NCBI GenBank assembly: GCA_944363505.1
Contig: CALVUD010000002.1
Coordinates: forward strand, 210,516-274,515
Reading direction: 5' to 3'
From: an uncultured Clostridia bacterium
GTDB lineage: Bacteria; Bacillota; Clostridia; Christensenellales; DTU072
DNA length: 64,000 nucleotides
In this document: positions 5,430-40,311 of the stretch, in pieces
Position numbering within the stretch: the stretch's first letter is position 1
Layout: each line of letters begins with the position of its first letter
Notes under the pieces: generated by a model
Seen by the model: the letters and a program-made list of their open reading frames with translations, nothing else
What the model was told of the DNA's origin: nothing
Databases searched by the model: none
Made by a program: the position numbers and the translations under genes

Positions 5430-6815
5430 ATGGCAAAACTGACAATGGATAAGCTGGTCGCACTCTGTAAAGGCAGAGGATTCGTCTATTCCGGCAGCGA
5501 AATTTACGGCGGACTCGCCAACACCTGGGACTTCGGACCTTTGGGCGTACTGCTGAAAAACAACATAAAAGCCGCCTGGTGGAAAAAATTCGTCCAGGAA
5601 AGCCCGTACAACGTCGGGCTGGATTCCGCGATTTTAATGAATCCGGAAGTATGGGTGGCGAGCGGACACCTCGGCGGATTTTCCGATCCGCTCGTAGACT
5701 GCAAAAACTGCAAATCCCGCCATCGCGCGGACAACCTGATAGAGGATTACCTGAACAAAAAAGGCGAAAAAGCCAATATCGCTGGTTGGACGAACGAACA
5801 GCTCGAAGCGTTCCTGAAAGAACACTCCGTGCCCTGCCCCGTCTGCGGTAAAAGCGATTTCACTTCGATAAGAAAGTTCAATCTTATGTTCAAAACTTTC
5901 CAGGGCGTTACCGAAGACACCGCTTCGACGGTGTATCTGCGCCCCGAGACCGCTCAGGGCATTTTCGTGAACTTCAAAAACGTACAGCGCACTTCGCGCA
6001 AAAAAGTGCCTTTCGGCATCGCCCAGATCGGAAAATCCTTCCGTAACGAGATAACTCCCGGAAACTTCATTTTCCGCGTCAGGGAATTCGAGCAGATGGA
6101 ACTGGAGTTTTTCTGCAAACCCGGCACGGATCTCGAATGGTTCGAATACTGGCGCGCGTTCTGCCGCGACTGGTTGCTCGGTCTCGGAATCAAAAAAGAT
6201 AATCTTCGCCTAAGAGATCACGACAAGGACGAACTTTGCTTCTATTCCAAAGCCACCACTGACTTTGAATTTTTGTTCCCTTTCGGCTGGGGCGAACTGT
6301 GGGGCGTTGCCGACAGGACCGATTACGACCTCACTCGGCACGCCGAGCACTCGGGCAAGGATCTGAACTATATCGATCCCGTGACCAACGATAGATATAT
6401 CCCCTACGTCATCGAGCCCTCGCTGGGGGTGGAGAGAATGACCCTCGCCGTACTCTCCAACGCATACGAAGAGGAAGAGCTGGAGGGCGGAGACACTCGC
6501 GTCGTAATGCGCTTCCATCCCGCGCTGGCGCCCGTAAAAGTCGCCGTTTTACCCCTGCAAAAACAGCTTAACGAACGTGCCGAAGCACTCTATGCGGATT
6601 TGTCAAAACAATTCATGTGCGATTTCGACGCCGCGGGTTCTATCGGCAAACGTTACCGCAGACAGGACGAAATCGGCACCCCCTATTGCGTCACCGTCGA
6701 TTTCGACACGCTCGAGGACGGCACAGTGACCGTCAGAGACCGCGACACGATGGCGCAGGAAAGGATCAAAGCAGACGAACTTAAATCGTATCTTGCGAAT
6801 AAACTGGCATACTGA
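5430..6815 (+). CDS. glyQS: Glycine--tRNA ligase (dimeric class II form)
   Basis: 461 aa. The N-terminus [34 protein letters not shown] is typical of GlyQS. Confidence 0.95.
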
Positions 6816-6838
6816 AAAATTCCGGAGGAGGTTTACAT

Positions 6839-7864
6839 ATGTACAAAGTTTCCAAAAAGGGTTGGATAGAAGCGGGTATCAGCTTCGGCATCTTTGCCGT
6901 AATAGCGGTTATCGCCGCGTTCTACGACCTTCAGATCAATAAGGCTCTGTACGCGCCCGGTTGCCCTTACGCGCAATTTTTCGACAATCTGGGCGAAATG
7001 CCGACCTATTTCGCCGCTCCCGTCGCGGGAAGCATTCTGTTTTGGCAACGCTTCGGCAACACCAAAAAACAACACTTGCTGATTAAGATTCTGGGCGCGG
7101 GCGTTGTCTACTGCGGATATCTGGTGGCTATCGGCGTATGGTTTTTCGGCAACTTCTTTGCCGACGAAATAAAATATCAATGGGTTTACGCGGTATTCTT
7201 CGCGGCGATAATGAGCGCGCTGACCATAGCGGCGTTTTCAAAAATCCCCGAAAAGACCATGAAAAAACTGTTCTGGTTCGCCGTATTCCTCGCGGCTTGC
7301 GCGATACTGGCAAACGCTATCGTTCAGATCATGAAGTTTATCTGGGCGCGTCAGCGTTTCCGCACGATGACCCCCGGCAACCCCAAGACACCCGACGCGC
7401 TACTCGCGCTGTATCCCGGATACGATTACGACGGCTTCACGCCCTGGTATATGATAAACACGATCATCAAGCCCGAAATCAGGACCGACGCCTATGTTGC
7501 GCTGTTCAAATCGGTTGACGACGGCGCGTTCGTATCCTTCCCGTCGGGTCATACTTCGGCGGCGTCAACTTCTCTTGCGCTGATAATAATCCCCGAACTT
7601 TTCCCTAAAATGCGCGCCAAAAACCGCAAATGGATGTTCTGGGTATTTCCCCTTATTTATACGGGACTGGTCGCGATAAGCCGCATAGTGATGGCTGCCC
7701 ACTACCTTAGCGACGTATTGTTCGGATACTTTATCGGATTCGGCTCGGCGGCGCTGCTGAGAATAATAATGCTGAAAGTATTTTCCAAAAAAGGAATCTC
7801 TTTCGAAGAAGATCAGTCCGCCGTTATCACGCTTACGGAAGAAAGCGTCGAACAACTGAAATAG
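6839..7864 (+). CDS. PAP2-family membrane phosphatase
   Basis: Polytopic membrane protein with PAP2 boxes FPSGHTSAA and SRIVMAAHYLSDV. Confidence 0.75.
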   Translation: MYKVSKKGWIEAGISFGIFAVIAVIAAFYDLQINKALYAPGCPYAQFFDNLGEMPTYFAAPVAGSILFWQRFGNTKKQHLLIKILGAGVVYCGYLVAIGVWFFGNFFADEIKYQWVYAVFFAAIMSALTIAAFSKIPEKTMKKLFWFAVFLAACAILANAIVQIMKFIWARQRFRTMTPGNPKTPDALLALYPGYDYDGFTPWYMINTIIKPEIRTDAYVALFKSVDDGAFVSFPSGHTSAASTSLALIIIPELFPKMRAKNRKWMFWVFPLIYTGLVAISRIVMAAHYLSDVLFGYFIGFGSAALLRIIMLKVFSKKGISFEEDQSAVITLTEESVEQLK

Positions 7865-7888
7865 CATTTATTAATCGGATTCAACGAT

Positions 7889-7923
7889 AAAGGCGCCGCG
7901 AAAACGCGGCGCCTTTAATTTTT
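7889..7923. terminator. Hairpin terminator between convergent genes
   Basis: AAAGGCGCCGCG-AAAA-CGCGGCGCCTTT followed by AATTTTT. Sits between the PAP2 stop (7864) and the lipoprotein stop (7937). Confidence 0.7.
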
Positions 7924-7936
7924 CCCGTTAAACGGT

Positions 7937-9577
7937 TTAATCGACAGGCAGGCTGTCGCTTACCGTAAAGAACGATCCAGAAACGTCCAGAGTCACGTCG
8001 AAAGCGGCGTCGATCACGTACTTCGACAAATCGATTCCCGCTTCTTTAAGTTTGCTTTCGATCTGCCCTGTTCCGCGGTAAGATCTTTGCAGACAATCAT
8101 AAAGTCCGGTCATATCCAGTCCCAAAAGATTTTTGAAAAATACGGAATCGAGCTTAAAGGAAATCAGACTGTCGTCGATATTCAGCATCGAAAACACGAA
8201 CGCAAGCGACTCGAAAGTATTCATAATATCTCTTTTGTCAAAATAATTATCGATGAGACATTGCAGAAAATCCGTAAAGTACGCTTCCGTTTCGAATACG
8301 CCGGTTTTCACGGAGCCGCTCTCGTCGCGCTCCATTACCGACAGCTTTAAAATATTATCCGCGTAATTCAATTCGAAAGGAATGAAGTTTGCGTCGTCGG
8401 GGTCTGTAATTTTGAGAATTATCGTATCGTCGTTTCCGCCTGAATCCATACCCGTATATTTAAACGACAAACCGATATCGTAATCTTTGCCTCCGAGCAG
8501 CGTTCCGTCCGCAAAACGCACTACGCCGTCCACGCTTACGAAACGGGAATCGTACATATAATAGTCGTCGAACTTAGAGTCGTTCCTGTATGGCATTACG
8601 CTTTCGTCCAGAGCAGCGGCTTTTACGTCCAGTTTGTTCAGACCTATGCTGATCGAATACGCTTCCCCGCCGAAAACCGTGTTTTTATTGTCGGATTCGC
8701 TGACGTCCAGAATCATATCGAGCGCGGAAATTTTTCCAGTCCCCTCCCCGTCCGTGCGTATTCCGCCCGTGGTGGTAAATTCGAGTTCGAGAGCCGCAGG
8801 AGGCATTTCGGCCGACAGTCTATCCGAATTGACGCCGAAAATCGCGCCTATCAAAGCTTTGATGTCGGCGGTGTATTCTTCGTAATCGTTTTTGGTAATG
8901 AAATTGACGAGATTGACGAGAGAACGTTTCAGGTCTATATTCGCGGTATAGCTTCTGGTGCGCGTTCCGTTTGACTCGTCTTTATATTTGTACGTCAAAT
9001 CGTAAACGACAAGACTGGAATTCAACACGGACGACAAAATCGTCGTATCGAGACTTCCGAACGGCAACATGTCCGCAAGCGAGGAATTGTACAGAGGAAT
9101 CTCGATCTTGTTGCCGCTTACGGACACGAACAGTTCGTCATAAGATGAATCCGCACCCGAATAAAGATAAATTTCTATAAACGGAGAGCTTGAACCCGCA
9201 CGGGTTACTATGAATCCCGTTCTGGTCGCCCCGGCAGAACCCGATTCGGATTTTTTCAGATCGTAATCGGAAATGAATAAAAGCGTGCTTTTTGAATCGT
9301 TGATCTTTAAATCCGCAGAAACGTAAATCGACGCGTTAGGCCTTGAAGACGTGATCTGCGAAGAATTGACGGGTCTCAACGCCGAAACAATGCCGCCGAT
9401 CAGGTCTTCGGTCATCAGGTCGATATTTGTTTCGCCTTTTACGAAGCCGTCGCTGTTTTCTTCGGTTGACGGCGTGTTCGGCTTGCCTCCCCCCGTCGTA
9501 TCGCATCCCGCCGAAACGATCAGCACCGCTATAAGCAACGCAACGACCGCAAATATCCATATTGTTTTTTTCCTCAT
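7937..9577 (-). CDS. Hypothetical lipoprotein (546 aa)
   Basis: Start set at MRKKTIWIFAVVALLIAVLIVSAGC (ATG 9577, GGAG RBS upstream). Has a lipobox Cys. I recognise no domain. Confidence 0.6.
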   Translation of the reverse strand: MRKKTIWIFAVVALLIAVLIVSAGCDTTGGGKPNTPSTEENSDGFVKGETNIDLMTEDLIGGIVSALRPVNSSQITSSRPNASIYVSADLKINDSKSTLLFISDYDLKKSESGSAGATRTGFIVTRAGSSSPFIEIYLYSGADSSYDELFVSVSGNKIEIPLYNSSLADMLPFGSLDTTILSSVLNSSLVVYDLTYKYKDESNGTRTRSYTANIDLKRSLVNLVNFITKNDYEEYTADIKALIGAIFGVNSDRLSAEMPPAALELEFTTTGGIRTDGEGTGKISALDMILDVSESDNKNTVFGGEAYSISIGLNKLDVKAAALDESVMPYRNDSKFDDYYMYDSRFVSVDGVVRFADGTLLGGKDYDIGLSFKYTGMDSGGNDDTIILKITDPDDANFIPFELNYADNILKLSVMERDESGSVKTGVFETEAYFTDFLQCLIDNYFDKRDIMNTFESLAFVFSMLNIDDSLISFKLDSVFFKNLLGLDMTGLYDCLQRSYRGTGQIESKLKEAGIDLSKYVIDAAFDVTLDVSGSFFTVSDSLPVD

Positions 9578-11791: not shown

Positions 11792-11847
11792 GCGTTATAA
11801 TCTGCGGCAAGCGCTCCGCGCATATACGCAAAATAAGCATAAAAAAA

Positions 11848-12109
11848 GTGCGCCCACTCCGACCTGCCCTACCGGATCGGCTCATGCGCAGGCGGCTCCT
11901 TCAAAGTTTCCTCGTGGCACATCCCGGAATCGCTTAGTGCTGCTGCGGTCAAGCTCTGACACGGTTCACGACACGAAATTGCACAAGACCTTGCTATCAA
12001 CGCTCCTTACGCACGTCGGCTTCCCATAAAACAGGCCTCGGTGGGTGTTCTACCCTGCTGTAGCGGATTGCAGGTTACAGGGCACCGCTAGCTCCCCGTA
12101 TAGCACAAC
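11848..12109 (-). ncRNA. ffs: Signal recognition particle RNA, long Bacillus-type (with Alu domain)
   Basis: Minus strand reads ...GGGGAGCTAGCGGTGCCCTGTAACCTGCAATCCGCTACAGCAGGG... (Alu-domain box as in B. subtilis scRNA, from memory). It also reads ...GAACCGTGTCAG...GCAGCAGCACTAAG... (helix 8 region). The 5' GTGC pairs with the 3' GCAC and is followed by T7. A consensus promoter lies just upstream. About 262 nt; ends are +/-5 nt. Confidence 0.8.
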
Positions 12110-12201: not shown

Positions 12202-13293
12202 CTATCGCTCGCCCTTGCCGAAAAGCAATTCGTTCATCGCTTCTTTCAGGTCGTCGATACCGAGTTTCAAAGTCGCGCTCGTCCTGACGCTCCTGACCCC
12301 GGCGGGTAAAACCGCGTCGTCGGGCAAGCGGTCGCATTTGTTCAGCACAGCCAGAACCGGAATGCCCCCTGCCCCTATCTTCTCTAAAACGTCGTCGACG
12401 ACGGCATATTGCTCGGCACAGTTGACGTCCGACGAATCGACGACGTGCAGTAACAGATCGGAATACCTGGTTTCTTCGAGCGTCGAACGGAAAGCACGGA
12501 CGAAATCGTGAGGAAGATCGGATATAAATCCCACCGTGTCGACCAACAAAATTTCTCCTCCGCTAAGGCGCATACGCCTGACAACGGGATCCAGCGTCGC
12601 GAACAGTTTGTCCTCCACGCCCACTCCGGCGTTCGTCAATACGTTCATCAGAGAGGACTTTCCCGCGTTGGTGTACCCGACCAGCGACACGACTTTGACG
12701 GCGTTTTTCAAGCGCCTTTCCCGTCTGACGGCACGCTCCGCCTCCAGCTTTTTCAGTTTCTTTTCGAGTTCGCGAATTTCGTAGCGGATAGAGCGTTTGT
12801 CTATCTCCTGTTGCTGCTCGCCGCCTCCGCGCCTCGCGCCGCCGCCGCCCGCGCCGCCGCCGCCCTGTCTGGAAAGTGCTACGCCCTGTCCCAGGACTCT
12901 CGGCAGCTGTTTTTTCTTTTTCATCAGCTCGACCTGTAGTTTTCCTTCGTTGGTCGTGGCGTGGCGAGCGAAAATCTCTATTATCAGCGTGGAGCGGTCC
13001 ATCACCGTAACGCCCAAAGCGTTTTCGAGGTTGTTCAGCTGTGTGCCGCCTACCTCGTTTTCAAATATCACGACAGAAGAATCGGTAGCTTCGACTACCG
13101 ATTTCAGTTCGTCAAGTTTACCCTTGCCGATAAAATAGGATTTGTCGGGACGGGCGCGGCGTTGCGTTAAATACGCCCTGACCTCGTAGCCCGCGGTACG
13201 GGCGAGCTGTTCAAGCTCCTCAGCCGCCATGTCGGCTTCCCGCGCCGCGGAAACGTTGACGAGTACCGCGCCTTCCCTGTCGGATCCGTTCAT
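12202..13293 (-). CDS. hflX: GTPase HflX
   Basis: HflX N-domain (LIIEIFARHATTNEGKLQVELM) and G-domain boxes GYTNAGKSS, DTVGF, NKCD. TAATG overlap with the upstream ORF. Confidence 0.9.
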   Translation of the reverse strand: MNGSDREGAVLVNVSAAREADMAAEELEQLARTAGYEVRAYLTQRRARPDKSYFIGKGKLDELKSVVEATDSSVVIFENEVGGTQLNNLENALGVTVMDRSTLIIEIFARHATTNEGKLQVELMKKKKQLPRVLGQGVALSRQGGGGAGGGGARRGGGEQQQEIDKRSIRYEIRELEKKLKKLEAERAVRRERRLKNAVKVVSLVGYTNAGKSSLMNVLTNAGVGVEDKLFATLDPVVRRMRLSGGEILLVDTVGFISDLPHDFVRAFRSTLEETRYSDLLLHVVDSSDVNCAEQYAVVDDVLEKIGAGGIPVLAVLNKCDRLPDDAVLPAGVRSVRTSATLKLGIDDLKEAMNELLFGKGER

Positions 13294-16043
13294 TATTTAC
13301 CCTGTATCACGTAATACATTCTGGTCATCTCGTCCTTACCCATAAACTTCGGAACGGGGTAAAGCGGATTGGCTTCTTTTAACGAATGTTCGACCATGGC
13401 GGGGATATCCTCCTCACGTATAAGGTCGGAACCGTCTTTTGCTTTGATGGTCTTGGGTACGTTCATATAGTCGTTCATCTCGCGTATGGCGGCGATGAAG
13501 TTAAGCGCCTTTTCTTCGACGTCCTTGCCCTGTACCCCGGCGATGTCCGCAAGGCGAGACAGCGGCTCGTAGATCGATTCTCCGTAGTAATCGAGAACGT
13601 AAGGAAGTATCACGGCGTTAGCCAGTCCGTGAGGCACGCCGTATTTTCCGCCCAGCGAATGAGCTATCGCGTGAACGTAGCCGACGTAAGCCCTGGTAAA
13701 TGATACGCCCGCGCAGTATGCGGCTTCCTGCATGTTTTCTCTGGCTTCCATATCCTTGCCGTCGTCATATGCGCGCTTCAGATATTTGAAAATGAGATCG
13801 GTGGCTTTTTCCGCCATCTCGACGGTCAGAGCGGTGTTGCTTTGTCCGATATAAGCTTCGACGGCGTGGGTCAGCGCGTCCATACCCGTGGTGGAAGTGA
13901 TGTGCTTCGGAAGTCCCACCGTCAGCGCGGGGTCAAGGACGGCATAATGAGGTATCAGCGACGGATCGTTGATGGTGTATTTGTCATGAGTCGCGGCGTC
14001 CATTATGACCGCGGCGAGGGTGGCTTCGCTGCCCGTTCCCGAAGTCGTCGGAACAGCAAAGAACGGAGGCATGGAGTGCATGACCTTCAGGATACCTTTC
14101 ATCTTCTTTACGGGTTTGGAGGGACGAGCGACTCTCGCGCCAACGCCTTTTGCGCAGTCCATGGGAGAACCGCCGCCGAAAGCGACTATGGCTTTGCATC
14201 CGCCCTCGACGTATGCTTTATATGCGTTTTCGACGTTATCGACGGTGGGGTTAGGAACGACGTCCTTGAACAAGGTGTATTTTACGCCCGCTTTGTCCAT
14301 TTCCTCGAACATTCCGTTCAACATGCCGAGCGAGTACAAACCGTTATCGGTTACGACCAACACGGAATCGATTCCTTTCTCTTTAATGATCGAGGGAAGT
14401 TTGAGTATGCTGCCTTCGCCTTTGATAAGTTCGGGTTTTCTGAGCCTCAGCATTGGCATGACCACTCTGAACACCGCCTGATATATGCGGTAGTACGCTT
14501 TTTGGAACACGTTTATCATTACTGCCTCCGTAGTATGTATTTTATCGACATATTCGGGATAGATTTCCTTGATGTAATTCAAAATATCCCTTCTTTGCGC
14601 CCTGAGCGCGCCCCTCTTTTCCATTTTCATGCTGACTGCGGCGGTTGCCCAGATAAGCGACTCCTCGACGGAACGGCGTTGTCTTTCCGCTATGTACGCC
14701 GCAAAAGTCGTGTCTCCGCGCCCCGATCTTCCCGAGAGGTTCCTCGCCCTTATCGGACAGGCGTAAATCTTTTTGCCGTTGTAAACGATGACCTCGGTGT
14801 TATGAGTTATCATTACCTCCTTTGCGCCCCATTTATGCAGCAGTTTCGCCGCTTCGTATCTGTCCGTAAGTCCCGTCAGAATTTCCGCCTCGGCGGCGTC
14901 CGTCTTCAGATAATGGATCTTGGGAAGAAGTTTCATCTTGTCCGCCCAGTCCTCGAAATACATCTCGCCCGTTTCGGGGTTTCTGTGTCTTAAAAATCCC
15001 TGAACGTCGACTGCGACCTTGTCTTTCGCCGCAAGGAAATCGATAAGTCCGTCCTCGTAATCGCCGTATATAAGCCCCGCGAAATGGTAGACCTTGACCG
15101 CTTCGGAAGGAATGTCCGCTTTTACGAATGCGTCGCCCTGCGAAATTCCCTTGCAAAGACGTTTTTCCTTATCGGCAGTAAGGTATCTGTTCTCTATGGA
15201 AGTGGCTTCCTCGGCGGGCAAAACCTTTATGTTGGCGCGGGGAACCGCGAAAGAATCGAGCCTGTATTCCTCGCCCGCTTTTATCTTGGTCAGCGCGAGC
15301 ACGCTGTGTCCGAGAGAATACGCCGCCGCCGAAGAGTACAGGACCGCTCCGCCGACCTCGACGACCTCGCTGCCGTCGGCGTCGATATTGCGGTCGAGCG
15401 AGCTGTGTCCTATGGTCATGACGTCGCGCTTGTAAGTCTTTCTCATGATCACGAACTTATCCATCAGGAACATTATCACCCAGCTTAAGAGCGAGCCGAG
15501 CAGTTTGCTGATCGTGTTTCCGAGATCCGCGCCCGCGACGGGTCCGAGCACCGTTCCGAGAGCGCCGCCGAGCCAGGTGGAAAGTATGATTATCGCGATG
15601 ACCGTTATAACGTACATCACCGCGCTGAGCGCCACGTTGTTATTGGCGTTGAAAGTCTTTTTCCTGTTGACGGCAAACGAAATTATCTCGGCAATACATT
15701 TAGAGCCGAGGAACGCCACGAATCCCGCCAGTCCGTATGCCGCCTCCTTACCCGGAGCGTAATGGAACAAAAACCATTTGAATTCCACGTCGCCCCATAC
15801 GTCCAACAGCCCGTACTGCAAAGCGTACATCGACGCGAATTCCGCCAAAAAGGCTATCAGGCTGATCAGCGTAAACTTGACGATCTGCCAGATATTCGCG
15901 TGCGCGGACATGAACTTCTGAAACTTCATTACAAAGGTTTGGTTCTGTTCGGATACCTGTTTTTCGGTTTCAGGTTCCCCGGAGCGAGGATTTCCGTTTT
16001 CGGAAACTTCGTTTTCGATTTTGGGGTTTACATCTTTTGCCAT
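13293..16043 (-). CDS. Triple-domain fusion: GtrA-like membrane domain / PfkB-family sugar kinase / iron-containing alcohol dehydrogenase
   Basis: Uninterrupted 916-codon frame with a GGAGGG RBS before ATG 16043. About aa 40-200: four TM helices with NRKKTF (GtrA-like). About aa 209-495: PfkB kinase (GRSGRGDTTFAAY). About aa 509-916: Fe-ADH boxes GGGSPMDCAKG, DALTHAVEAY, HAIAHSLGGKYGVPHG. Confidence 0.8.
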   Translation of the reverse strand: MAKDVNPKIENEVSENGNPRSGEPETEKQVSEQNQTFVMKFQKFMSAHANIWQIVKFTLISLIAFLAEFASMYALQYGLLDVWGDVEFKWFLFHYAPGKEAAYGLAGFVAFLGSKCIAEIISFAVNRKKTFNANNNVALSAVMYVITVIAIIILSTWLGGALGTVLGPVAGADLGNTISKLLGSLLSWVIMFLMDKFVIMRKTYKRDVMTIGHSSLDRNIDADGSEVVEVGGAVLYSSAAAYSLGHSVLALTKIKAGEEYRLDSFAVPRANIKVLPAEEATSIENRYLTADKEKRLCKGISQGDAFVKADIPSEAVKVYHFAGLIYGDYEDGLIDFLAAKDKVAVDVQGFLRHRNPETGEMYFEDWADKMKLLPKIHYLKTDAAEAEILTGLTDRYEAAKLLHKWGAKEVMITHNTEVIVYNGKKIYACPIRARNLSGRSGRGDTTFAAYIAERQRRSVEESLIWATAAVSMKMEKRGALRAQRRDILNYIKEIYPEYVDKIHTTEAVMINVFQKAYYRIYQAVFRVVMPMLRLRKPELIKGEGSILKLPSIIKEKGIDSVLVVTDNGLYSLGMLNGMFEEMDKAGVKYTLFKDVVPNPTVDNVENAYKAYVEGGCKAIVAFGGGSPMDCAKGVGARVARPSKPVKKMKGILKVMHSMPPFFAVPTTSGTGSEATLAAVIMDAATHDKYTINDPSLIPHYAVLDPALTVGLPKHITSTTGMDALTHAVEAYIGQSNTALTVEMAEKATDLIFKYLKRAYDDGKDMEARENMQEAAYCAGVSFTRAYVGYVHAIAHSLGGKYGVPHGLANAVILPYVLDYYGESIYEPLSRLADIAGVQGKDVEEKALNFIAAIREMNDYMNVPKTIKAKDGSDLIREEDIPAMVEHSLKEANPLYPVPKFMGKDEMTRMYYVIQGK

Positions 16044-16058
16044 TGTGCCCTCCGTGGT

Positions 16059-17075
16059 TTATCTGGATATTCTGCCGCTCGCGTCGCCCGCCGAAAGACG
16101 TTTGACTTCGTCGACCGTAACCATGTTGAAGTCGCCCTCTATAGTCTGTTTAAGGCAAGAAGCCGCCGTCGCGAACTCCACCGCGGACCGAGGATCGAAA
16201 TTGGATAATCCGTATATCAGACCCGCGCCGAAGGAATCGCCTCCGCCCACGCGGTCCACAATATGTATAAGGTATTCTTTTGCGGAATATACGTTGCCGT
16301 CCCCGGAAACGAGCACCGCGGACCAGCGGTTGTCGCTTGCCGATATCGAACCGCGCAAAGTTATCGCGGCGTACTCGAGATCGAAGCGTTTGATCAACTC
16401 GCGCGCTACTCCGACATATCCCGCCGCCTCGACCTTGCCGCCCGTAACGTCTGCCGGGGCGGTTATGCCGAACACGTCGGACGCATCCTCCTCGTTGGCG
16501 ATAACGACGTCCACGTATTCCATAAGCGGTTCCATTACCGAACGCGCTTTTTCCCTGCTCCAGAGTTTTTTGCGGTAATTCAAGTCGCACGAGACTTTTA
16601 AACCCGCCGCGCGCGCGGCTTTAACGGCTTTCAACGTTATTTCGGCGACGTTGTCGCCGAGGGCGGGAGTGATACCCGTAAAATGGAACCAGTCGGCGCC
16701 CTTGAATATCTTTTTCCAGTTAAAATCGTTTTTGCCCGCTTTTGCGATAGCGCTGCCCGCGCGGTCGTAAATGACTTTTGACGGACGGGCGGAAGCGCCC
16801 GCTTCCAAAAAATATATGCCCGTTCTTTCGCCGCCGCGCACGATCCCCGAAACGTCGACGCCCGCAGCGCGGAGCGCTCTGACGGCGCCTTCGCCGATGT
16901 CGTTTTCGGGAAGTTTCGTTATAAATGCGGCGTCGACGCCGAAATTCGCGAGCGAAACCGCGACGTTCGCTTCGCCGCCGCCGTAGGTGGCTTCATATTT
17001 ATCCGCCTGTAAAAACCTGAGGTATCCCTCGGGCTTAAGCCTTAGCATTATCTCACCGAACGTAACAACTCTCAT
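16059..17075 (-). CDS. kdgK: 2-dehydro-3-deoxygluconokinase (PfkB family)
   Basis: N-terminus VVTFGEIMLRL.PEGY and C-terminal PfkB box VGGGDSFGAGLIYG. Adjacent to eda. Confidence 0.85.
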   Translation of the reverse strand: MRVVTFGEIMLRLKPEGYLRFLQADKYEATYGGGEANVAVSLANFGVDAAFITKLPENDIGEGAVRALRAAGVDVSGIVRGGERTGIYFLEAGASARPSKVIYDRAGSAIAKAGKNDFNWKKIFKGADWFHFTGITPALGDNVAEITLKAVKAARAAGLKVSCDLNYRKKLWSREKARSVMEPLMEYVDVVIANEEDASDVFGITAPADVTGGKVEAAGYVGVARELIKRFDLEYAAITLRGSISASDNRWSAVLVSGDGNVYSAKEYLIHIVDRVGGGDSFGAGLIYGLSNFDPRSAVEFATAASCLKQTIEGDFNMVTVDEVKRLSAGDASGRISR

Positions 17076-17076
17076 G

Positions 17077-17703
17077 TCAGATCTCCTTTGCTATATCCGC
17101 GCCGATACGCGAAATACGCGTTATTTCCGAAAAATTCTTCGCTTGGATCAGGCTGTCCTTTACCATCCAGCTGCCGCCCGCCGCAATCACGTTTTTCAGC
17201 GAAAGATACTCTTTCAGATTCTCGTTGTCCACGCCGCCGGTCGGCAAGAAAACGACGTCCTTAAACGGTGCGCCCAAAGATTTTATCGCCTTGACTCCGC
17301 CGTAAACCGACGCGGGAAAGAACTTGACGATTTTGTTGCCGCCGTCGACGACTTTCATGATCTCGGTGGGCGTTACGGCGCCCGGAATATACAAAACGCC
17401 CGCCTCACGGCAGAACGCGTTTACACCCTCGGAATACCCCGGAGATACGATGAACTTTGCGCCGCATTTCACCGCCGTTTCAGCCTGTGCGGCGTTTATA
17501 ACAGTGCCCGCGCCGATTAGCGCTTCCGGACAGTTTTCGCTAGCAAGCGTTATCGCCTCGCTCGCAGCCCCGGTCCTGAAAGTGATTTCGGCGATCGGAA
17601 TACCTCCCGCAGTTAGCGCGTTGACGACGTCAACGGCGTCCGCAGCCGAATCCAGCTTGACTACGGGTACGATTTTAACCTTTTTTACGATATTGTAAGA
17701 CAT
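17077..17703 (-). CDS. eda: KDPG / 4-hydroxy-2-oxoglutarate aldolase
   Basis: Eda-type motifs (KIVPVV, EITFRT, GAKFIVSPG). Start moved to MSYNIVKK (ATG 17703). Confidence 0.85.
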   Translation of the reverse strand: MSYNIVKKVKIVPVVKLDSAADAVDVVNALTAGGIPIAEITFRTGAASEAITLASENCPEALIGAGTVINAAQAETAVKCGAKFIVSPGYSEGVNAFCREAGVLYIPGAVTPTEIMKVVDGGNKIVKFFPASVYGGVKAIKSLGAPFKDVVFLPTGGVDNENLKEYLSLKNVIAAGGSWMVKDSLIQAKNFSEITRISRIGADIAKEI

Positions 17704-17791
17704 AATCCCGTTCCTAAGTAAAACTATAGCTATTATATACCCGCCGCGCGCGCGTGTCAACGCGATAATCAAATTAAAAAGCGCTTTACGC

Positions 17792-23130: not shown

Positions 23131-23213
23131 TGGTGCGGTCGATGGGACTTGAACCCATACGGTCTCCCATACGCCCCTCAAACGTACGCGTCTGCCTATT
23201 CCGCCACGACCGC
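23131..23213 (-). tRNA. tRNA-Leu (anticodon GAG), long variable arm, CCA encoded
   Basis: The minus strand GCGGTCGTGGCGGAATAGGCAGACGCGTACGTTTGAGGGGCGTATGGGAGACCGTATGGGTTCAAGTCCCATCGACCGCACCA folds as a class II cloverleaf. The anticodon loop is TTGAGGG. Confidence 0.9.
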
Positions 23214-30962: not shown

Positions 30963-33900
30963 TTATTCAGAATCCGCCGAACCGAAATATTCTGCAACGG
31001 AATCGAATATGTCTTCGGTCAGCGATCTTTCCCCCGCAATATACTTCGCCTTTTCGGGCAAGGCAAAAAATCCCAACACCCTGCCGTCCGGAGAAGACAG
31101 CGCCGCTACCGCAAAGTCGGAAGCGTCGGGATTGAACGGATACGCCGAAGTCGGCATACCTACGGGATCGACGAACTGCGCGGCGACCTGTCCCGAAGAA
31201 GTCAACTCTTTGAATATCTCTGGCTGTATTCTGAGACGCATGTCTTTTCCCGCGGCTGCCGCAAAGTACGAATAACCCAGACCGGTTTTGGTCAGCATAG
31301 GCGAAAACCGGTTGGCTATCCTGATCCTCGGGATCTTTGCGGAAGGAGCGTGGTCGGGAGCGGCTTCCAGCCTGAGTCCCGCATCGTGGGCGTGTTCTGT
31401 ACTGCCTTTCGACAACAAGCCTATATGCGCAAGCGCGCGACTGCCTTCACCCGTGGCAAGGATCAGTCCGTCGTTACGGTATATCAGTTCGTTCATCGCG
31501 TCGCTTACCACCGGCTTCATCAAGAGTTTATAAAACTTACCGCCGTCCGCATAGTCGCCGTAGGCGCTTTTCCCGACCAGCGCGAGCATGTCCGAAGAAG
31601 CTATTTTCTCGCGGACCGTTCTCAACAATTGCTGATCCTCTTCCGTATATTTACCGACATATACCGATTCTATTTTGAAATTTCTTCTTCCCGCCGATTC
31701 CGCGACTGCACCCTCCGAGGCATAATCGCAATGCACTATTGTCAGTATCGGCATACGCACCTTGCCCGAACGCAACGGAGACCCCTTTTGCGACACGGGG
31801 GCGACGGGATAACGCTGGTCCGGGCGATTCTCGAAAGGATATCTGCTGACCAGCCTGTCCAGTTCGGAATGGGTTATGTTGAAAGCGGTACTTCTGATCC
31901 TGCCGGTATCGTCCACCACGCCTATGTATTCGGGATCGAAAGCGGAAAACTCCTCCGCGTCCTCGACCGCAATCAGCATTTCCGAACGGTTGATCCCGCT
32001 TTCCGGCGGTTTGGAAGAAAACGAAAATCCCAGCCTTTCTCCCGACGTGCCTTCCACCACGGTTTTTGCCACACCGTTTTCTATCAGGCGCGCCGCAATC
32101 AAATTGCCTTTGGTGACGTTAATGCTTATCTGAGCAGCCAGTTTTAACACAAACTTAAAGTCAGGGATACCGTACTCGTCTCTCGGGATAACTATTTTAT
32201 AAATTTTATTGCCGTTGCGGAACAACCCGTTCTTAAGCGAATCCGTCGTCGTAATCCCCGTTGCCGCCATGAACAAAGACGGTATGCCCCCGTGCGTTTC
32301 CCCTTTCCCGACAGAGTAGCCGAGCGAACACAGCGAAAGCGCGTTTTCCAAATAGAACACGCCCAGCGCCAGTTCCAACAACATGCCTTTGGAACGGTCG
32401 GTATCGGGCACGAGATAGGTCGGATTCAACACTATATCGTAGATCGACACTCCCGACACGACGAGTTTCAGAACGGCGTTCAGCGCCGTATTGACGGCTT
32501 TCGTAAACAGGTCTCCTCCCGTAGCAGGCGAGGAAAGCGCCGCGGTATTGACGGCGTTGCCGTATCCGCTGAAATCGGGCTTCACCGCCGCGACGAAATT
32601 GGGCGTGGTCTGAGCGGAACCGGACATCTGCCCGGCAACGGATCTGCCGCCGCCGAGAGCGTTCAACACAATGCCCTCCGAAACGTTCATCACGGAGTTT
32701 TTTATATCCTCCGCACTTTCTGAAGCACGGTCGAGGAAAGGCTCGGGCACCGATTCCAGAACGTATCGCGAAAACGAATGTCTGCGGCGCAATAATACGT
32801 TCATGCTCAGATTAATCAGTTCGGTACCCTTGGAAATCAGCCTGAATTTGTGTCTGGCGTTAAACTTTCCGAGCAGCCTAAGCTCGAAAGAGTATTTTTC
32901 GGCTGCCGCTTTCACGGGTGCGAGTTTGCCGCGCTTGATCACTATAACTATGCGGTTCAGACTCTTTTCGAGGATCAGTTCCTCGCCGGGCATCCCGAAT
33001 TCGGAAGCCTCCCCCAACTCTATATCGAAACCCGAACCCAGCGCTATAATGCCGTTCAACAAGCCGTTGTCGCAGTACACGCCGCGTTGGATCAGATCGC
33101 CCACGTTGATCTCCCGCAAAAACGCGTTAAGCTTTAAAATGCCGTCGCGCTCCGTGTCGCGCGTTTCGAAATACGCGATAATGTCGCCCGGCTCGGGATT
33201 GCCCGAACCTATCTGCGGAAACGTGGAAAAACCCAGTACCGTGGCTTTCGTCAGCGGTTTTTCGACGCCTACGCAGGACGAACCGAAATCGTATGCGGCG
33301 GCGTCCAACGAATCCGCGTACCTGGCAAACGCAACAGTTCTTTCGGGGGTATTCCCACCGGGTTCTTCGTGAATGAAAAGTTTGGGAATGGCTCCGGCCA
33401 CGCTGCATTCCATTGTCGCGCGTCTTTCCGCACGCAAAAAGTCGTCGTCCCACTTCGTCATCAGATAAGAAAAATACCTGACGCGACGGTTTTTGTCGTA
33501 TATCGCGCACTCTTCGGATACCCTCCCCGCATTCATAAGTACGGAATCGCGGTTATCTGCCGCCACGGCTTTCACGTTCACTATCTGAATGTCGGCAAGC
33601 GTCCTGTAAGCGCCGGGGGTGAATCTGCGATGCAGTTCCTCGTATTTCGTGAGCGCCTTACGGATATGCGGGTTTTCCGAAATAACGTTGATCTCCCCTA
33701 TTTCGCGCGTGAAATGCGAACGCGGCAAGCTCCAGTACGCGTCCAGAATTTTCAACGCAAGCACGGTGGGCACGTTTTTACGCAAAGCTTTGCCGAGTTT
33801 AAAAAGATCTTCCACGCTCATGCTTAAATCCAGTCCGCGCTTCAATGCCGTCAGCGTTTTGGCGTCGAAAGAGGAAAATCCGTTGATTTTTCTGTGTAAT

Positions 33901-33977
33901 TGAAAATCCGAAAAGTCCGACGACACGGACTTTTCTTTCAGTGCGTTTTTTATATTCTTTCCCGACAATGCGTTCAT
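30963..33977 (-). CDS. FGAM synthase (PurL-type) paralog, probably non-catalytic
   Basis: 1004 aa, colinear with single-chain FGAM synthases (PurM-like repeats plus a C-terminal glutaminase-like part). The catalytic boxes I can place are all substituted (see findings). Confidence 0.7.
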   Translation of the reverse strand: MNALSGKNIKNALKEKSVSSDFSDFQLHRKINGFSSFDAKTLTALKRGLDLSMSVEDLFKLGKALRKNVPTVLALKILDAYWSLPRSHFTREIGEINVISENPHIRKALTKYEELHRRFTPGAYRTLADIQIVNVKAVAADNRDSVLMNAGRVSEECAIYDKNRRVRYFSYLMTKWDDDFLRAERRATMECSVAGAIPKLFIHEEPGGNTPERTVAFARYADSLDAAAYDFGSSCVGVEKPLTKATVLGFSTFPQIGSGNPEPGDIIAYFETRDTERDGILKLNAFLREINVGDLIQRGVYCDNGLLNGIIALGSGFDIELGEASEFGMPGEELILEKSLNRIVIVIKRGKLAPVKAAAEKYSFELRLLGKFNARHKFRLISKGTELINLSMNVLLRRRHSFSRYVLESVPEPFLDRASESAEDIKNSVMNVSEGIVLNALGGGRSVAGQMSGSAQTTPNFVAAVKPDFSGYGNAVNTAALSSPATGGDLFTKAVNTALNAVLKLVVSGVSIYDIVLNPTYLVPDTDRSKGMLLELALGVFYLENALSLCSLGYSVGKGETHGGIPSLFMAATGITTTDSLKNGLFRNGNKIYKIVIPRDEYGIPDFKFVLKLAAQISINVTKGNLIAARLIENGVAKTVVEGTSGERLGFSFSSKPPESGINRSEMLIAVEDAEEFSAFDPEYIGVVDDTGRIRSTAFNITHSELDRLVSRYPFENRPDQRYPVAPVSQKGSPLRSGKVRMPILTIVHCDYASEGAVAESAGRRNFKIESVYVGKYTEEDQQLLRTVREKIASSDMLALVGKSAYGDYADGGKFYKLLMKPVVSDAMNELIYRNDGLILATGEGSRALAHIGLLSKGSTEHAHDAGLRLEAAPDHAPSAKIPRIRIANRFSPMLTKTGLGYSYFAAAAGKDMRLRIQPEIFKELTSSGQVAAQFVDPVGMPTSAYPFNPDASDFAVAALSSPDGRVLGFFALPEKAKYIAGERSLTEDIFDSVAEYFGSADSE

Positions 33978-36900: not shown

Positions 36901-37397
36901 TCGACGTAGCCCGCGGCATAGCCCACTTCCCATATGACGGCGCCGTCGGCGTCGGTATAGGAGGCGTTGCTTTTGTCGTCGGGAAAGCTGGCGCCGACGC
37001 CCGCGTTATATGTAACGTAATACGTCGGGGTCTCCGCGACCGTATATGTTTTTATCGTCAGATAGAGAGACGCTCCCTGATAAATGACTCTGATCGTGGC
37101 CGTACCGGCGGATTCGGTAAGTTTCAGCTCCTCTGGGGCGATCATGCTTTCGGTCACCGCGACCTCTTCCAGCAGATTGTCCCCGGAATCGTACAGATAG
37201 AATCTGAACGCCGACCAGTCCACTTTGCCCGCTTCGAAAACATACGCTCCCGCCGCCTCGTCGTAATATGCTTTGGCGGAATCGGGATTGAGTTCTATCG
37301 AATAAGCGGCTTTTTCGGAATCGGTACAACCTATCGCGAGAGCCGCCAGCGCGGTCAATAAAACTATTAAAATTACGATATAAATTTTCTTACGCAT
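33981..37397 (-). CDS. Large surface lipoprotein with Listeria-Bacteroides-type repeats and C-terminal BspA-like leucine-rich repeats
   Basis: Lipobox LAIGC. GY.F.GWY...ARW / FDGWY...AKW repeat signatures. About the last 330 aa are LRR (..AF....L..I.LP..L..I...AF..C..L). Confidence 0.8.
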   Translation of the reverse strand: MRKKIYIVILIVLLTALAALAIGCTDSEKAAYSIELNPDSAKAYYDEAAGAYVFEAGKVDWSAFRFYLYDSGDNLLEEVAVTESMIAPEELKLTESAGTATIRVIYQGASLYLTIKTYTVAETPTYYVTYNAGVGASFPDDKSNASYTDADGAVIWEVGYAAGYVDTVEIPEREGYVFVGWYSASDFSGSVFTAGRTLTRDTVVYARWSDMRTFTVRFTAYRDGATWGLVETRTDVEYGSVITFPAPAQEAAYDFVNYTVEVRDDSDKVTETVVLTDPEATFEVTSNLTVSINYTIKMLEMTYVVTRTDSPWAEEGATQFGVPIVEKQISYSGQYVNGYCYVFEVRYGTTLRADVEPVPEIPEIPGATGIWLDASTGREPLYGSATADRTFIAQYTDRLYSMYFWLDEEQTVPATDTTGAQITRTAYYNRYISTPPAVPEKTGHTGIWYIRIDNVLVQKDLTTVAMTTDYNVVARYFPNDYTVSYYLSPANSDTLIQLGSYSVSYGTEVRPGVDVENGIIGNGYPFDIYEVTWYSSAGKQPSSKVEFPRRVEGNISFYAEPTRKPYTIVFRSPANAPYEAFEMEIEVSPDENGVATVQVPQVNIPGYNVTYWYYYDVTGLDAVPAYDSSSVYSAGDRVVYRNSVYKALSGVPAGSEPPNPTYWTPDMPTETMIFQSQGSFSVTESHTYDPDVRFDKAIYASAVPQTFDANFYNVAYNGTASEGYEISFVLQIGMPVEYNDYVSYVPVPDTPQYGDGATGDFVFDGWYLDPGYVTPVDPATYAIKGAVNFYAKWTDMLLGTEGLEFEAVTDESGTTIGYKVVGFASSAEEYSTLSVYIPDSHMGLPVVALGEGAFENYSKILFITEITLPSGLTTVEDNAFRGLFALNNVNLNGVSFNFANGVLTSADGSVLYLYLPTNEATSYTVPATVSRIAGGAFANNRYLTAIAFEGNGLTEIGAYAFDGADSLTTVALPASLETIGAYAFRSCLSLESVSVAQGSALKEVGTGAFDDVLGALENDGEYVYLGTTLIKYSGTASQAVLDASFTAVAAGAFGGSRIEVLTIGADSSLAYISADAFRDAFNVEEIRILKQDKVAAGENAFEGVSLDAALYVAAETLEAYKNDAVYVEAFGDNIYPAV

Positions 37398-38728: not shown

Positions 38729-39631
38729 ATGATTTTCAACGACTGGATGAGTTACATAAAACCCGAAGCGCGCCTGAATAAAATCGCAATGCCCGGGGCG
38801 CACAACGCCTGCACTGCGGGAATGGGAAAACAGGCGTGCTGCCAAAACGACACGATAGCCGTGCAGCTAAAATACGGCGTCAGGCATTTCTGTATCCGAC
38901 TGGATACCGACAGAAAAGGCAACGTCGTTTGCTGCCACGGCATTTCCAAAGGCGAACCGCTCGCGAAAGCTCTGAAAGGAGTTCGTGAGTTTATGGAAGA
39001 AAATCCGTCGGAAATATTGCTGTTGGATATCCGAGAATATTACGACCAGAAAATTTTCGGTCCTCTGGTTTTAAGCTACGAGGCAAAACCCGAAAAAGTC
39101 GACGAAATACTTGCCGAAACCGTCTGCCCGGAAAAGTACGCCTATACCGGTTTCGAAAAAATCGAGGACGTAAAGATCGGCGACGTGTTGAATGCGGGAA
39201 AACGTTTTATCCTGATGAACGAAAAAGAGGACTACGCTTACTCCAAAAAAACAAACATCAACCTGCCTTGGGAAAAGAAAGTGAACGGCTCCAAAGCCTA
39301 TAAATTCACGCGCGAAACTCTAAGGTTTTTCGACGACTACCCTACCGACGGGATCTATATTTTTCAGACGCAGCAGACGCCGAACCTCGGAACCGAAATA
39401 GGAATAACTTCGCCGCTGAAACTCGACCTCAGCCTGCGCGAACATTTCCCGTACCTCATCGAAGGAATAAAGAACAACCCCTACTACCTCGAAAGCGCGA
39501 ACGTCATCGCGGGCGACTTCATGACAGATTCTTATATGAAGTCCTCTCTCATAATATCGCTGAACCTCGACAAAGGCATTGTTACCGAAAATAAAGAAAA
39601 AGATTTTGCGGAGGGTCTGAAATGGAACTGA
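38729..39631 (+). CDS. PI-PLC X-domain (PLC-like phosphodiesterase) protein
   Basis: Start at MIFNDWMSYI (ATG 38729, AGGAG RBS). WMS....L..I.MPGAHNA, GVRHFCIRLD and CCHG parallel the bacterial PI-PLC boxes WMS...L..LSIPGTHDS, R.FDIR, HHG. Confidence 0.6.
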   Translation: MIFNDWMSYIKPEARLNKIAMPGAHNACTAGMGKQACCQNDTIAVQLKYGVRHFCIRLDTDRKGNVVCCHGISKGEPLAKALKGVREFMEENPSEILLLDIREYYDQKIFGPLVLSYEAKPEKVDEILAETVCPEKYAYTGFEKIEDVKIGDVLNAGKRFILMNEKEDYAYSKKTNINLPWEKKVNGSKAYKFTRETLRFFDDYPTDGIYIFQTQQTPNLGTEIGITSPLKLDLSLREHFPYLIEGIKNNPYYLESANVIAGDFMTDSYMKSSLIISLNLDKGIVTENKEKDFAEGLKWN

Positions 39632-40311
39632 AAACGCTGGGAATATACGGGCCGTATCCTAAAGCGGGCGGTTCGGCTTGCAGTTCGTATCTTGTCCGAA
39701 CGGCAAGCGCGAAATTAGTTCTGGATTTCGGCGCGGGAGCGCTTACGCGACTCACCGCCGAGGAGGACGTCGGCTCGGTTGACGCGATAATTTTGTCCCA
39801 CACGCATTTCGACCATGTGTCGGATATGTTGCCGTTAACTTACCTTATGGAGCTGCGTCCCGGAAAGTTGAAAGTTTATTTACCTAAAATGAAAGATAAT
39901 TGGTATCTTAAGCTACTGAATTCAGCCCTTTTCGAAGCGCACGAAGTCGAAGCGGGCGACAAAGCGGAAATTAACGGCGCGCTCGTCGAATTTTTCCCCG
40001 CCCGGCACACGGTGCCGACGCTGGGGGTCAAAATAAGCGAAGGCGGCAAAAGCCTGTATTATACGGGCGACACCGTATGGTTCGACGAACTCTCCGAGTA
40101 CGTGCGCGGCGCGGATACGGTGCTTGCGGACGCGGCAAAGCCGCTCGGATTCAAGGGACCGCATATGAGTTACGACAAAGCTTTCCTGTTGAAAGAGGCT
40201 TCGGGCGGCAAGGTCATCCTGACTCATCTTTCGCCCGATTTTGATCCCTCCCCCGCGCTTGACGACAAGGATATAGAAGTAGCGAAAGAAGGAAAAGTCT
40301 ATTTTGTCTGA
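39622..40311 (+). CDS. MBL-fold metallo-hydrolase
   Basis: ILSHTHFDH (HxHxDH) box. 229 aa. Confidence 0.75.
   Translation: MELKTLGIYGPYPKAGGSACSSYLVRTASAKLVLDFGAGALTRLTAEEDVGSVDAIILSHTHFDHVSDMLPLTYLMELRPGKLKVYLPKMKDNWYLKLLNSALFEAHEVEAGDKAEINGALVEFFPARHTVPTLGVKISEGGKSLYYTGDTVWFDELSEYVRGADTVLADAAKPLGFKGPHMSYDKAFLLKEASGGKVILTHLSPDFDPSPALDDKDIEVAKEGKVYFV

Follow-up and report, generated by a model that had tools for sequence, protein, structure and literature searches.

Genes and features at the locus

The DNA analysed here, called the window below, is a stretch of 64,000 nucleotides from an uncultured Clostridia bacterium (assembly GCA_944363505.1, contig CALVUD010000002.1, positions 210,516 to 274,515). 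On its minus strand, one open reading frame (ORF) joins a predicted GtrA-like membrane module, a ribokinase-family kinase domain and a complete iron-containing alcohol dehydrogenase (Fe-ADH) in a single protein of 916 amino acids (aa). A first-pass annotation, made from the DNA letters, had described this frame with its GGAGGG ribosome-binding site, the order of the domains and their tethering to the membrane, and all of these were found to be right (Table 1). The fusion is a new domain architecture built from known families, a clade-restricted joining of operon neighbours.

The neighbours named earlier, eda, kdgK and hflX (the last with its TAATG overlap), were confirmed by family matches. 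No convincing internal terminator was found in the eda-kdgK-fusion-hflX block, so it is probably a single transcription unit.

Table 1 Features of the fused gene, its operon and the distant gene pair, in window coordinates. PPi, pyrophosphate; PI-PLC, phosphatidylinositol-specific phospholipase C; MBL, metallo-beta-lactamase.
Feature	Position	Strand	Remarks
Fused ORF (GtrA-like transmembrane module, predicted PPi-type kinase, Fe-ADH)	13293..16043	-	916 aa plus stop
Shine-Dalgarno GGAGGG of the fusion	16048..16053	-	4 nt 5' of ATG
N-terminal tail, residues 1-38	15930..16043	-	variable, low-confidence, predicted cytoplasmic
GtrA/DPMS-type four-helix membrane module (predicted), residues 39-205	15429..15929	-	Pfam, hydrophobicity, AlphaFold2, fold matches
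NRKKTF of the membrane module, residues 126-131	15651-15668	-	
Junction 1, residues 200-210, MRKTYKRDVMT	15414..15446	-	end of transmembrane helix 4 to kinase start, ~5 residues between
TM0415-type ribokinase-family kinase domain (predicted PPi-dependent), residues 206-498	14550..15428	-	
RSGRGD, residues 439-444	14712..14729	-	RXGRGD pyrophosphate motif with catalytic Asp444
Junction 2 / linker, residues 499-508, VDKIHTTEAV	14520..14549	-	former intergenic region, in frame
GGAGG retained in junction 2	14525-14529	-	5 nt 5' of Met509 ATG
Complete class III iron alcohol dehydrogenase, residues 509-916	13296..14519	-	
kdgK-like PfkB kinase gene	16059..17075	-	directly 5' of fusion, same transcription unit (probable)
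eda (KDPG/KHG aldolase)	17077..17703	-	likely true start is the ATG at 17703
Perfect sigma-70 consensus TTGACA-17-TATAAT	17732..17760	-	5' of eda; likely operon promoter
hflX	12202..13293	-	start overlaps fusion stop as TAATG
PI-PLC-like gene	38729-39631	+	overlaps MBL-fold gene
MBL-fold gene	39622-40311	+	pair 38729..40311, 22 kb from fusion kinase

A conserved single frame in one narrow clade

The identical 916-aa protein was found on nine contigs from NCBI, ENA and Logan assemblies, the longest of 399 kb. Its 90% cluster has 113 members, nearly all of them 916 aa long. Ten clusters at 82-99% identity show the same architecture; those of 113, 24, 183 and 13 members contain proteins of ~910-916 aa. 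The junction-spanning peptides of the fused protein are IHTTEAVMINVFQK and FVIMRKTYKRDVMTIGHSSLDR. Proteins P0001-P0010 have in common the peptide MDKFVIMRKTYK(R/Y)(D/E)VMTIGH at junction 1 and YP(D/E)Y(I/V)(D/E)KIHT(S/T)E(A/S)VM(I/L)NVFQK at junction 2, and the junction peptides are kept between lineages 15-18% apart in protein sequence. The eda-kdgK-fusion-hflX context recurs in three other genomes (L001, L002 and L008).

An error of sequencing or assembly, with frameshifts or lost stops, would turn three genes into a false single ORF, and three genes do occupy the same locus in relatives. Such an artefact is nevertheless effectively refuted by the nine contigs from three sources, by the cluster sizes and by the conservation of the junction peptides despite the divergence of the lineages, and we give it next to no weight. 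That the fusion is real and its domains correctly identified can be said with high confidence.

Synonymous sites are saturated between the fused lineages (dS >1.2). The ratio of nonsynonymous to synonymous substitution rates (dN/dS) is 0.11 in the membrane module, 0.06-0.09 in the kinase and 0.04-0.07 in the dehydrogenase. Selection therefore maintains all three parts, each of which is under purifying selection. The N-terminal tail (residues 1-38) has a dN/dS of 0.28-0.49, as against ~0.1 or less in the other parts; the predicted local distance difference test score (pLDDT) of residues 1-30 is <50 in the AlphaFold2 model.

The architecture is as rare as the first-pass annotation supposed. An exhaustive HMMER search with residues 1-510 against 1.84 billion representatives, each standing for a 50%-identity cluster, found membrane module and kinase in one protein only in P0002. 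All remaining matches were kinase only (~300 aa) or membrane protein only (~190-320 aa). The architecture is therefore restricted to one narrow clade.

Split relatives and the origin of the fusion

Free-standing homologues of the Fe-ADH number in the thousands; they are 400-408 aa long and match residues 509-916 over their full length at 60-74% identity. The comparison with close relatives that had been proposed at the outset cut both ways: the fused frame is real in ten clusters, and relatives whose Fe-ADH is 68-74% identical carry three or four separate genes at the same locus. Five loci (L003, L004, L005, L013, the last being Ca. Stercoripulliclostridium pullicola, and L020) have the order eda, kdgK, GtrA-like gene (246-248 aa), kinase (303 aa), Fe-ADH (408 aa), hflX. 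In five others from Ca. Stercoripulliclostridium spp. (L007, L017-L019 and L021), an extra gene lies between kinase and Fe-ADH; its 410-aa product is a Gfo/Idh/MocA protein with a GH109-type C-terminal domain (GH109_C). Since relatives have split genes at the same locus, the ORF is a recent clade-specific fusion and not an ancient dedicated enzyme. The clade of gut Clostridia in which it arose is narrow and is the sister group of Ca. Stercoripulliclostridium. P0121, a 408-aa Fe-ADH with 88% identity, was considered as a split gene and set aside; its ORF reaches the start of a 3-kb contig and is probably a cut-off fusion.

Compared with the split genes, junction 1 has lost the acidic tail of the membrane protein (20-60 residues), the stop codon and the spacer. 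The linker at junction 2 consists of ten codons of the former spacer, read in frame now that the kinase has lost its stop. A GGAGG 5 nt 5' of the Met509 ATG was kept in all four fused loci compared, so a free dehydrogenase may also be translated from Met509.

Kinase domain

The earlier assignment of the middle domain to PfkB stood (PF00294, 34.2 bits against a cut-off of 25.8), with the C-terminal third of the profile aligned to residues 368-479. Its reading as a generic sugar kinase did not, because the domain has a donor site of the TM0415 type and a pocket like that of myo-inositol kinases. Against TM0415 (PDB 1vk4/5ysp, 5YSQ), phmmer gave an E-value of 1.2e-36 over residues 6-281 of the query, and BLASTP an identity of 34%. 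A much weaker match (E 3e-4) was to the myo-inositol 3-kinase of Thermococcus kodakarensis, which is ATP-dependent.

TM0415 uses PPi, not ATP or ADP, as the donor in forming 1D-myo-inositol 1-phosphate (Nagata et al. 2018, PMC5931981). PPi-specific members are marked by K171, F221, R229, R232 and M266 together with the motif RXGRGD, and inositol is contacted in TM0415 by D11, N78, Q141 and R145 (PMC5931981).

The donor residues K171, R229, R232 and M266 correspond to K380, R439, R442 and M474 of the fusion and are all kept. RSGRGD agrees with RXGRGD (GXGD with Arg at its second position and another Arg two residues before) and was invariant in 20 of 20 aligned relatives. K380, the third basic donor residue, precedes the DxxE Mg motif in LKTDAAEAE and is invariant in the family. 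The catalytic D234 of TM0415 is Asp444, and the Mg-site residues D346, D382 and E385 are present. All four inositol contacts are conserved as D217, N285, Q348 and R352, and I76 and L116 of the acceptor pocket are kept as well. Among the signature and pocket positions compared, only two differ: S89 is replaced by Cys, and F221 by I431, which is hydrophobic and smaller and is Ile in all 80 fetched genomes.

With this signature, the middle domain is better named a predicted PPi-dependent inositol-type kinase than a PfkB sugar kinase. We consider it likely, judging from these residues, that the enzyme takes phosphate from PPi rather than from ATP; whether its acceptor would be of the inositol type is close to an even call. 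A literature search on PPi-dependent inositol kinases returned nothing later than the 2018 paper. The presence of kdgK and eda at the head of the fusion operon is of note beside the link of TM0415 to an inositol catabolic route.

Membrane module

The four transmembrane helices and the NRKKTF box of the first-pass annotation were recovered as four hydrophobic segments (residues 49-75, 105-125, 134-169 and 181-200), with NRKKTF at 126-131. Its GtrA-type assignment needs qualification. Residues 104-199 of the fusion matched GtrA_DPMS_TM (PF04138) with 21.7 bits (E 2.4e-4), below the cut-off of 26.1. The L007 orthologue of the module scored 29.4 bits, above that cut-off, and all 15 relatives of the module matched PF04138 at E 0.01 or better, the best at 7e-9.

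In the AlphaFold2 model of residues 1-210 (mean pLDDT 74.5), helices span residues 49-83, 104-130, 137-170 and 172-199, and the first outer loop forms a short hairpin. The top three Foldseek matches are all to the dolichyl-phosphate mannose synthase (DPMS) of Pyrococcus furiosus, with probabilities of 1.00, 1.00 and 0.97, E-values from 5e-3 to 6e-2 and TM-scores of 0.36-0.44. Every other match had E >1, so that the DPMS match is weak but specific. Because the sequence itself falls below the Pfam cut-off, the assignment draws on family and fold evidence. Together these support placing the module, as a divergent member, in the GtrA/DPMS transmembrane superfamily, weakly so for the single sequence. 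By the positive-inside rule, both of its termini would be cytoplasmic (positive charges at KFQKF, NRKKTF and MRKTYKRD).

The defining genomic partners of functional GtrA proteins are a GtrB-type transferase and a GT-C enzyme. A Pfam scan of 34 window ORFs, and of the operon, showed neither a GtrB-type GT2 nor a GT-C partner. The connection to lipid-linked or cell-surface sugars suggested earlier thus gained no evidence, and elsewhere the module anchors unrelated soluble domains. It forms the N-terminus of ~540-aa DUF1508 proteins with a long acidic linker rich in Ala, Glu and Pro (P0033-P0120, e.g. P0061), and it heads one protein that ends in a domain like the C-terminal domain (CTD) of L7/L12 (P0359). 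These proteins fit a general, promiscuous membrane anchor. In L011 (Christensenella sp. UBA3944; 6495-8894) and L090 (a Clostridiales metagenome-assembled genome; 3437-5833), where dcuC-kinase is divergent from Fe-ADH-thiF-hflX, a DcuC-family carrier precedes the kinase in the place of the GtrA-like gene. This would fit a role of the module in solute uptake. Between anchor, carrier and lipid-binding roles we reached no preference.

One alternative account of the fusion builds on envelope sugars: a dehydrogenase and a PfkB kinase that uses ATP and acts on sugars or polyols would be mounted on a GtrA protein for lipid-linked or cell-surface sugars, so as to channel a sugar phosphate for envelope glycosylation. 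The fold of the module and the very short tether to the kinase agree with this, as does the association of the GtrA family with translocation of polyprenyl-phosphate sugars (PMC12992685). We nevertheless consider it improbable. The donor site has the PPi signature, which in TM0415 blocks the ATP pocket, the partner glycosyltransferases are missing from the scanned window ORFs, the operon partners eda and kdgK are catabolic, and in two genomes the place of the GtrA-like gene is taken by a DcuC-type solute carrier.

In a separate, more far-reaching account, the module would be more than a passive anchor: it would bind polyprenyl (di)phosphate and present to the kinase, ~5 residues away, a lipid-linked diphosphate such as undecaprenyl diphosphate (Und-PP) as the donor, or a lipid-linked polyol as the acceptor. 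Und-PP would be converted to undecaprenyl phosphate (Und-P) at the cytoplasmic face while an inositol-type acceptor is phosphorylated. We know of no cytoplasm-facing enzyme that carries out this conversion with phosphorylation of such an acceptor, and we rate this account as very improbable, below the envelope-sugar one.

Dehydrogenase and its genomic tie to the kinase

The third domain is a complete Fe-ADH, as had been stated. Residues 538-910 matched both Pfam halves (PF00465 and PF25137) with 154.1 and 165.6 bits (E 1e-45 and 1e-48). The dinucleotide motif GGGSPMD (GGGSxxD) lies at residues 623-629. The metal ligands are D722 and H726 in DALTH (722-726) and two His in HAIAH...PHG (791-806); these motifs align to those of 8ZRL. 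Among enzymes of solved structure, methanol dehydrogenase, Zymomonas ADH2 and FucO come closest (E 1e-59 to 2e-68). The Fe-ADH part starts at an internal Met (Met509), and its N-terminal extension of ~30 residues is common to a large clade of uncharacterised 400-aa enzymes of Clostridia and Bacilli.

Kinase and Fe-ADH genes were neighbours in five arrangements: fused; split; split with the Gfo gene; the L095 type, with the kinase divergent from adh-hflX and a GDPD gene 2 kb away; and the L011/L090 type, with dcuC-kinase divergent from adh-thiF-hflX. From this circumstantial evidence, a functional coupling of the two enzymes has about as much for it as against it. A PHP gene that follows the Fe-ADH gene in L093 was examined as a further link to the kinase and was rejected, having no significant similarity to the kinase-fused PHP domains.

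Wider kinase family and inositol phosphates

For a survey of the kinase family, one genome per species was scanned for GR[TSA]GRGDT-type relatives, and 80 loci were fetched. Such kinases occur in at least 595 species genomes, mostly of gut and rumen Clostridia; the main hosts are Christensenellaceae, Acutalibacteraceae and Ruminococcaceae. The donor and acceptor signature, D-(I/M)-N-(C/S)-L-Q-R / K-I-R-R-M, was essentially invariant in the 80 loci, whatever their context, so that all of these kinases probably have the same function.

Recurrent neighbours of the kinase include a 298-aa PI-PLC-like protein (19 loci), which matches bacterial PI-PLC in the PDB at E 3e-7, and a 230-aa MBL-fold protein (12 loci). 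Others are Gfo/Idh/MocA oxidoreductases, a class II aldolase and short GDPD-like proteins. The kinase is also fused elsewhere, as GDPD-kinase (Treponema sp. HNW, P0023), kinase-GDPD (P0011, P0016), MBL-kinase (P0012), PHP-kinase (P0020) and HAD-kinase (P0027). A literature search found no characterised member among the TM0415-type kinases fused to GDPD, MBL, PHP or HAD domains. ORFs of ~215 aa 5' of the kinase in L023, L071 and L051 were considered as GtrA-like and proved GDPD-like instead.

The window itself holds a PI-PLC-like/MBL pair (Table 1). The PI-PLC-like gene has no Pfam match, and its family matches the PI-PLC of S. aureus and Bacillus in the PDB. The same pair lies directly 5' of the kinase in 12-19 loci of other Clostridia, which makes the window pair probable pathway partners of the fusion kinase. 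Neighbours, fusions and window pair support a link to the metabolism of inositol phosphodiesters and phosphates and leave substrate and direction unfixed. Adjoining the pair is a gene for pyruvate phosphate dikinase (40518-43136, minus strand), a second PPi-linked enzyme of the window, whose presence is consistent with pyrophosphate-using metabolism.

A milder variant of the lipid-donor account would run the kinase in reverse: inositol 1-phosphate (Ins(1)P) released by the PI-PLC-like and MBL proteins would be phosphorolysed to give PPi for a PPi-based energy economy. The dikinase gene beside the pair is of note here. To this variant we attach as little probability as to the lipid-donor account itself.

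How the three parts may work together

The best explanation, to which we assign a probability of roughly 60%, is a maintained in-frame fusion of three genes that holds a PPi-type, inositol-class kinase at the membrane together with an Fe-ADH of the same route. The polypeptide would insert in the membrane with both ends in the cytoplasm. The GtrA/DPMS-type module would keep the kinase against the inner membrane face through a linker of ~5 residues, and a second linker of ~10 residues would join the kinase to the complete Fe-ADH. The kinase would transfer phosphate from PPi to myo-inositol or a related cyclitol or polyol derivative, or act in the reverse direction, and the Fe-ADH would use a metabolite of the kinase's route in an NAD(P)-linked alcohol/aldehyde reaction. 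KdgK and Eda may provide downstream steps. In this scheme we infer PPi use, the inositol-type acceptor, the coupling of kinase and Fe-ADH, the cytoplasmic orientation, and the part played by the module, which may be that of an anchor or of a conduit for substrate. Channelling of a substrate at the membrane is a possibility.

Several points weigh against this explanation. On the side of the kinase, the Km of TM0415 for myo-inositol is 12 mM; the authors of that study question inositol as the true acceptor and suspect another compound of the inositol catabolic route (PMC5931981). Two of the four homologues assayed in that study had no activity on the acceptors tried (PMC5931981). In the fusion kinase F221, a residue of the PPi signature, is replaced by Ile, and the operon of the fused clade showed no IolG, IolM, IolN or IolO, the inositol catabolic enzymes of T. 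maritima. On the side of the dehydrogenase, none of the NCBIfam equivalog cut-offs was reached (FucO, ErcA, GbsB, EutG, YiaY, SarD, 4-hydroxybutyrate dehydrogenase and others were tried); the best, TIGR02638, gave 308 bits against 523. Homologues of the Fe-ADH with 60-65% identity occur without such a kinase, in unrelated gene contexts. The gene hflX accompanies the Fe-ADH gene in all five arrangements, so part of the synteny could go back to common descent. A free dehydrogenase, possible given the retained GGAGG and ATG at Met509, would weaken the case for obligatory channelling.

Some of these points feed the main rival, a near-neutral read-through fusion without channelling. Here the loss of a stop and a small deletion joined mere neighbours, the Fe-ADH is made mainly free and is untied to the kinase, and the GtrA-like part is an anchor. 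The start signal at Met509 in all four fused loci, the Fe-ADH homologues in unrelated neighbourhoods, the Fe-ADH-hflX adjacency as a conserved synteny block in its own right, and the recurrence of the promiscuous module as an anchor at the N-terminus of proteins with DUF1508 or L7/L12-CTD-like domains are all in keeping with it. Yet both junctions stay in frame despite saturated synonymous divergence, with low dN/dS in every part, and the kinase-Fe-ADH adjacency outlasts inversions and insertions across the five arrangements. Moreover, junction 1 leaves the kinase without a start site of its own, which makes at least the link between membrane module and kinase obligatory. We therefore hold the read-through account to be unlikely, though well ahead of the envelope-sugar one, and prefer the maintained three-gene fusion.

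The physiological role and the true acceptor of PPi-dependent kinases of the ribokinase family have been unsettled since TM0415. As a Rosetta stone, the fusion is an argument that, in one lineage, a GtrA-type protein and a specific Fe-ADH are the partners of the kinase at the membrane. The family survey points to an uncharacterised pyrophosphate-linked route for inositol phosphodiesters in gut Clostridia, which is possibly widespread. It also becomes apparent that a GtrA/DPMS-type module can stand outside any glycosylation system.

Operon neighbours and other features of the window

The listed eda ORF (17077-17772, minus strand) begins at a TTG that overlaps the sigma-70 consensus. The ATG at 17703 gives a 208-aa Eda like that of relatives and is probably the real start. 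The KdgK-like neighbour was considered as IolC and stays KdgK-like, with 108 bits against a cut-off of 300. Its best score, 554 bits, was to the kinase half of NCBIfam NF041633 (KHG/KDPG aldolase/sugar kinase fusion protein); eda and such a kinase are therefore themselves fused in other organisms.

A second adjacent-gene fusion of this genome is a 459-aa ORF (44055-45434, minus strand) that combines YbeY endoribonuclease, an Era-type GTPase and a KH domain. Parts such as these usually belong to separate genes that adjoin one another.

An Rfam scan of the whole window returned only the signal recognition particle (SRP) RNA and one tRNA, and no riboswitch or leader near the operon. The large bacterial SRP RNA (11846-12108, minus strand, 154.8 bits) lies directly 3' of hflX, with a near-consensus promoter at 12142-12114; the tRNA is at 23134-23213 (minus strand). 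Two long minus-strand genes that adjoin each other were also noted. The product of one (33981-37397) is 1138 aa long and contains BspA-type leucine-rich repeats and a Listeria-Bacteroides repeat. The 1004-aa product of the other (30963-33977) matches Pfam only in a CobB/CobQ-like glutamine amidotransferase domain close to the C-terminus.

Comparison with known systems

TM0415 of Thermotoga maritima (1VK4/5YSP/5YSQ) resembles the fusion kinase in the match over the full domain, in RXGRGD, K171/R229/R232/M266, D234 and the D..DxxE Mg site, and in the inositol contacts. Its locus, like that of the fusion, is connected to catabolism of the 2-keto-3-deoxygluconate/2-keto-3-deoxy-6-phosphogluconate (KDG/KDPG) type. 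TM0415 is a free-standing soluble monomer, whereas the fusion kinase is tied to a membrane module and an Fe-ADH and has Ile for F221 and Cys for S89. TK2285, the myo-inositol 3-kinase of Thermococcus kodakarensis (3W4S, 4XF6, 4XF7), has the same fold and a related acceptor pocket (E 3e-4), but it is ATP-dependent and lacks the basic K/R/R donor residues that the fusion kinase has.

Two-domain relatives with GDPD, MBL, PHP or HAD partners belong to the same kinase subfamily (44-56% identity) and have the same signature. The fusion of the kinase to several partners elsewhere shows that it is prone to fusing with pathway partners. In these relatives the partners are phosphoesterases, and none has a membrane module or a dehydrogenase.

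The GtrA family (PF04138/IPR007267; GtrA of phage SfX, GtcA of Listeria and Bacillus, Rv3789 of M. tuberculosis) shares with the fusion module the four transmembrane helices and a cytoplasmic loop of the NRKKTF type between the second and third helix. The fusion module differs in scoring below the Pfam cut-off, in standing outside a three-component glycosylation system and in being fused to cytoplasmic metabolic enzymes. Among solved folds it matches only the type III DPMS of P. furiosus (5MLZ, 5MM1, 9EP0), whose transmembrane domain has been termed GtrA-like (PMC12992685). This enzyme is a precedent for a GtrA-like transmembrane domain covalently joined to a cytoplasmic catalytic domain. It has the reverse order, with the GT2 catalytic domain at the N-terminus, and carries out different chemistry; its fold resembles that of the module weakly (TM-score 0.42-0.44, E 5e-3).

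Class III Fe-ADHs such as FucO lactaldehyde reductase, Zymomonas ADH2 and NAD-dependent methanol dehydrogenase (8ZRL, 3OWO, 1RRM) share both Pfam halves, GGGSxxD and the Asp/His/His/His ligands with the dehydrogenase of the fusion. Unlike these named enzymes, it has the ~30-residue N-terminal extension, scores below every equivalog cut-off and forms the C-terminal part of a fusion.

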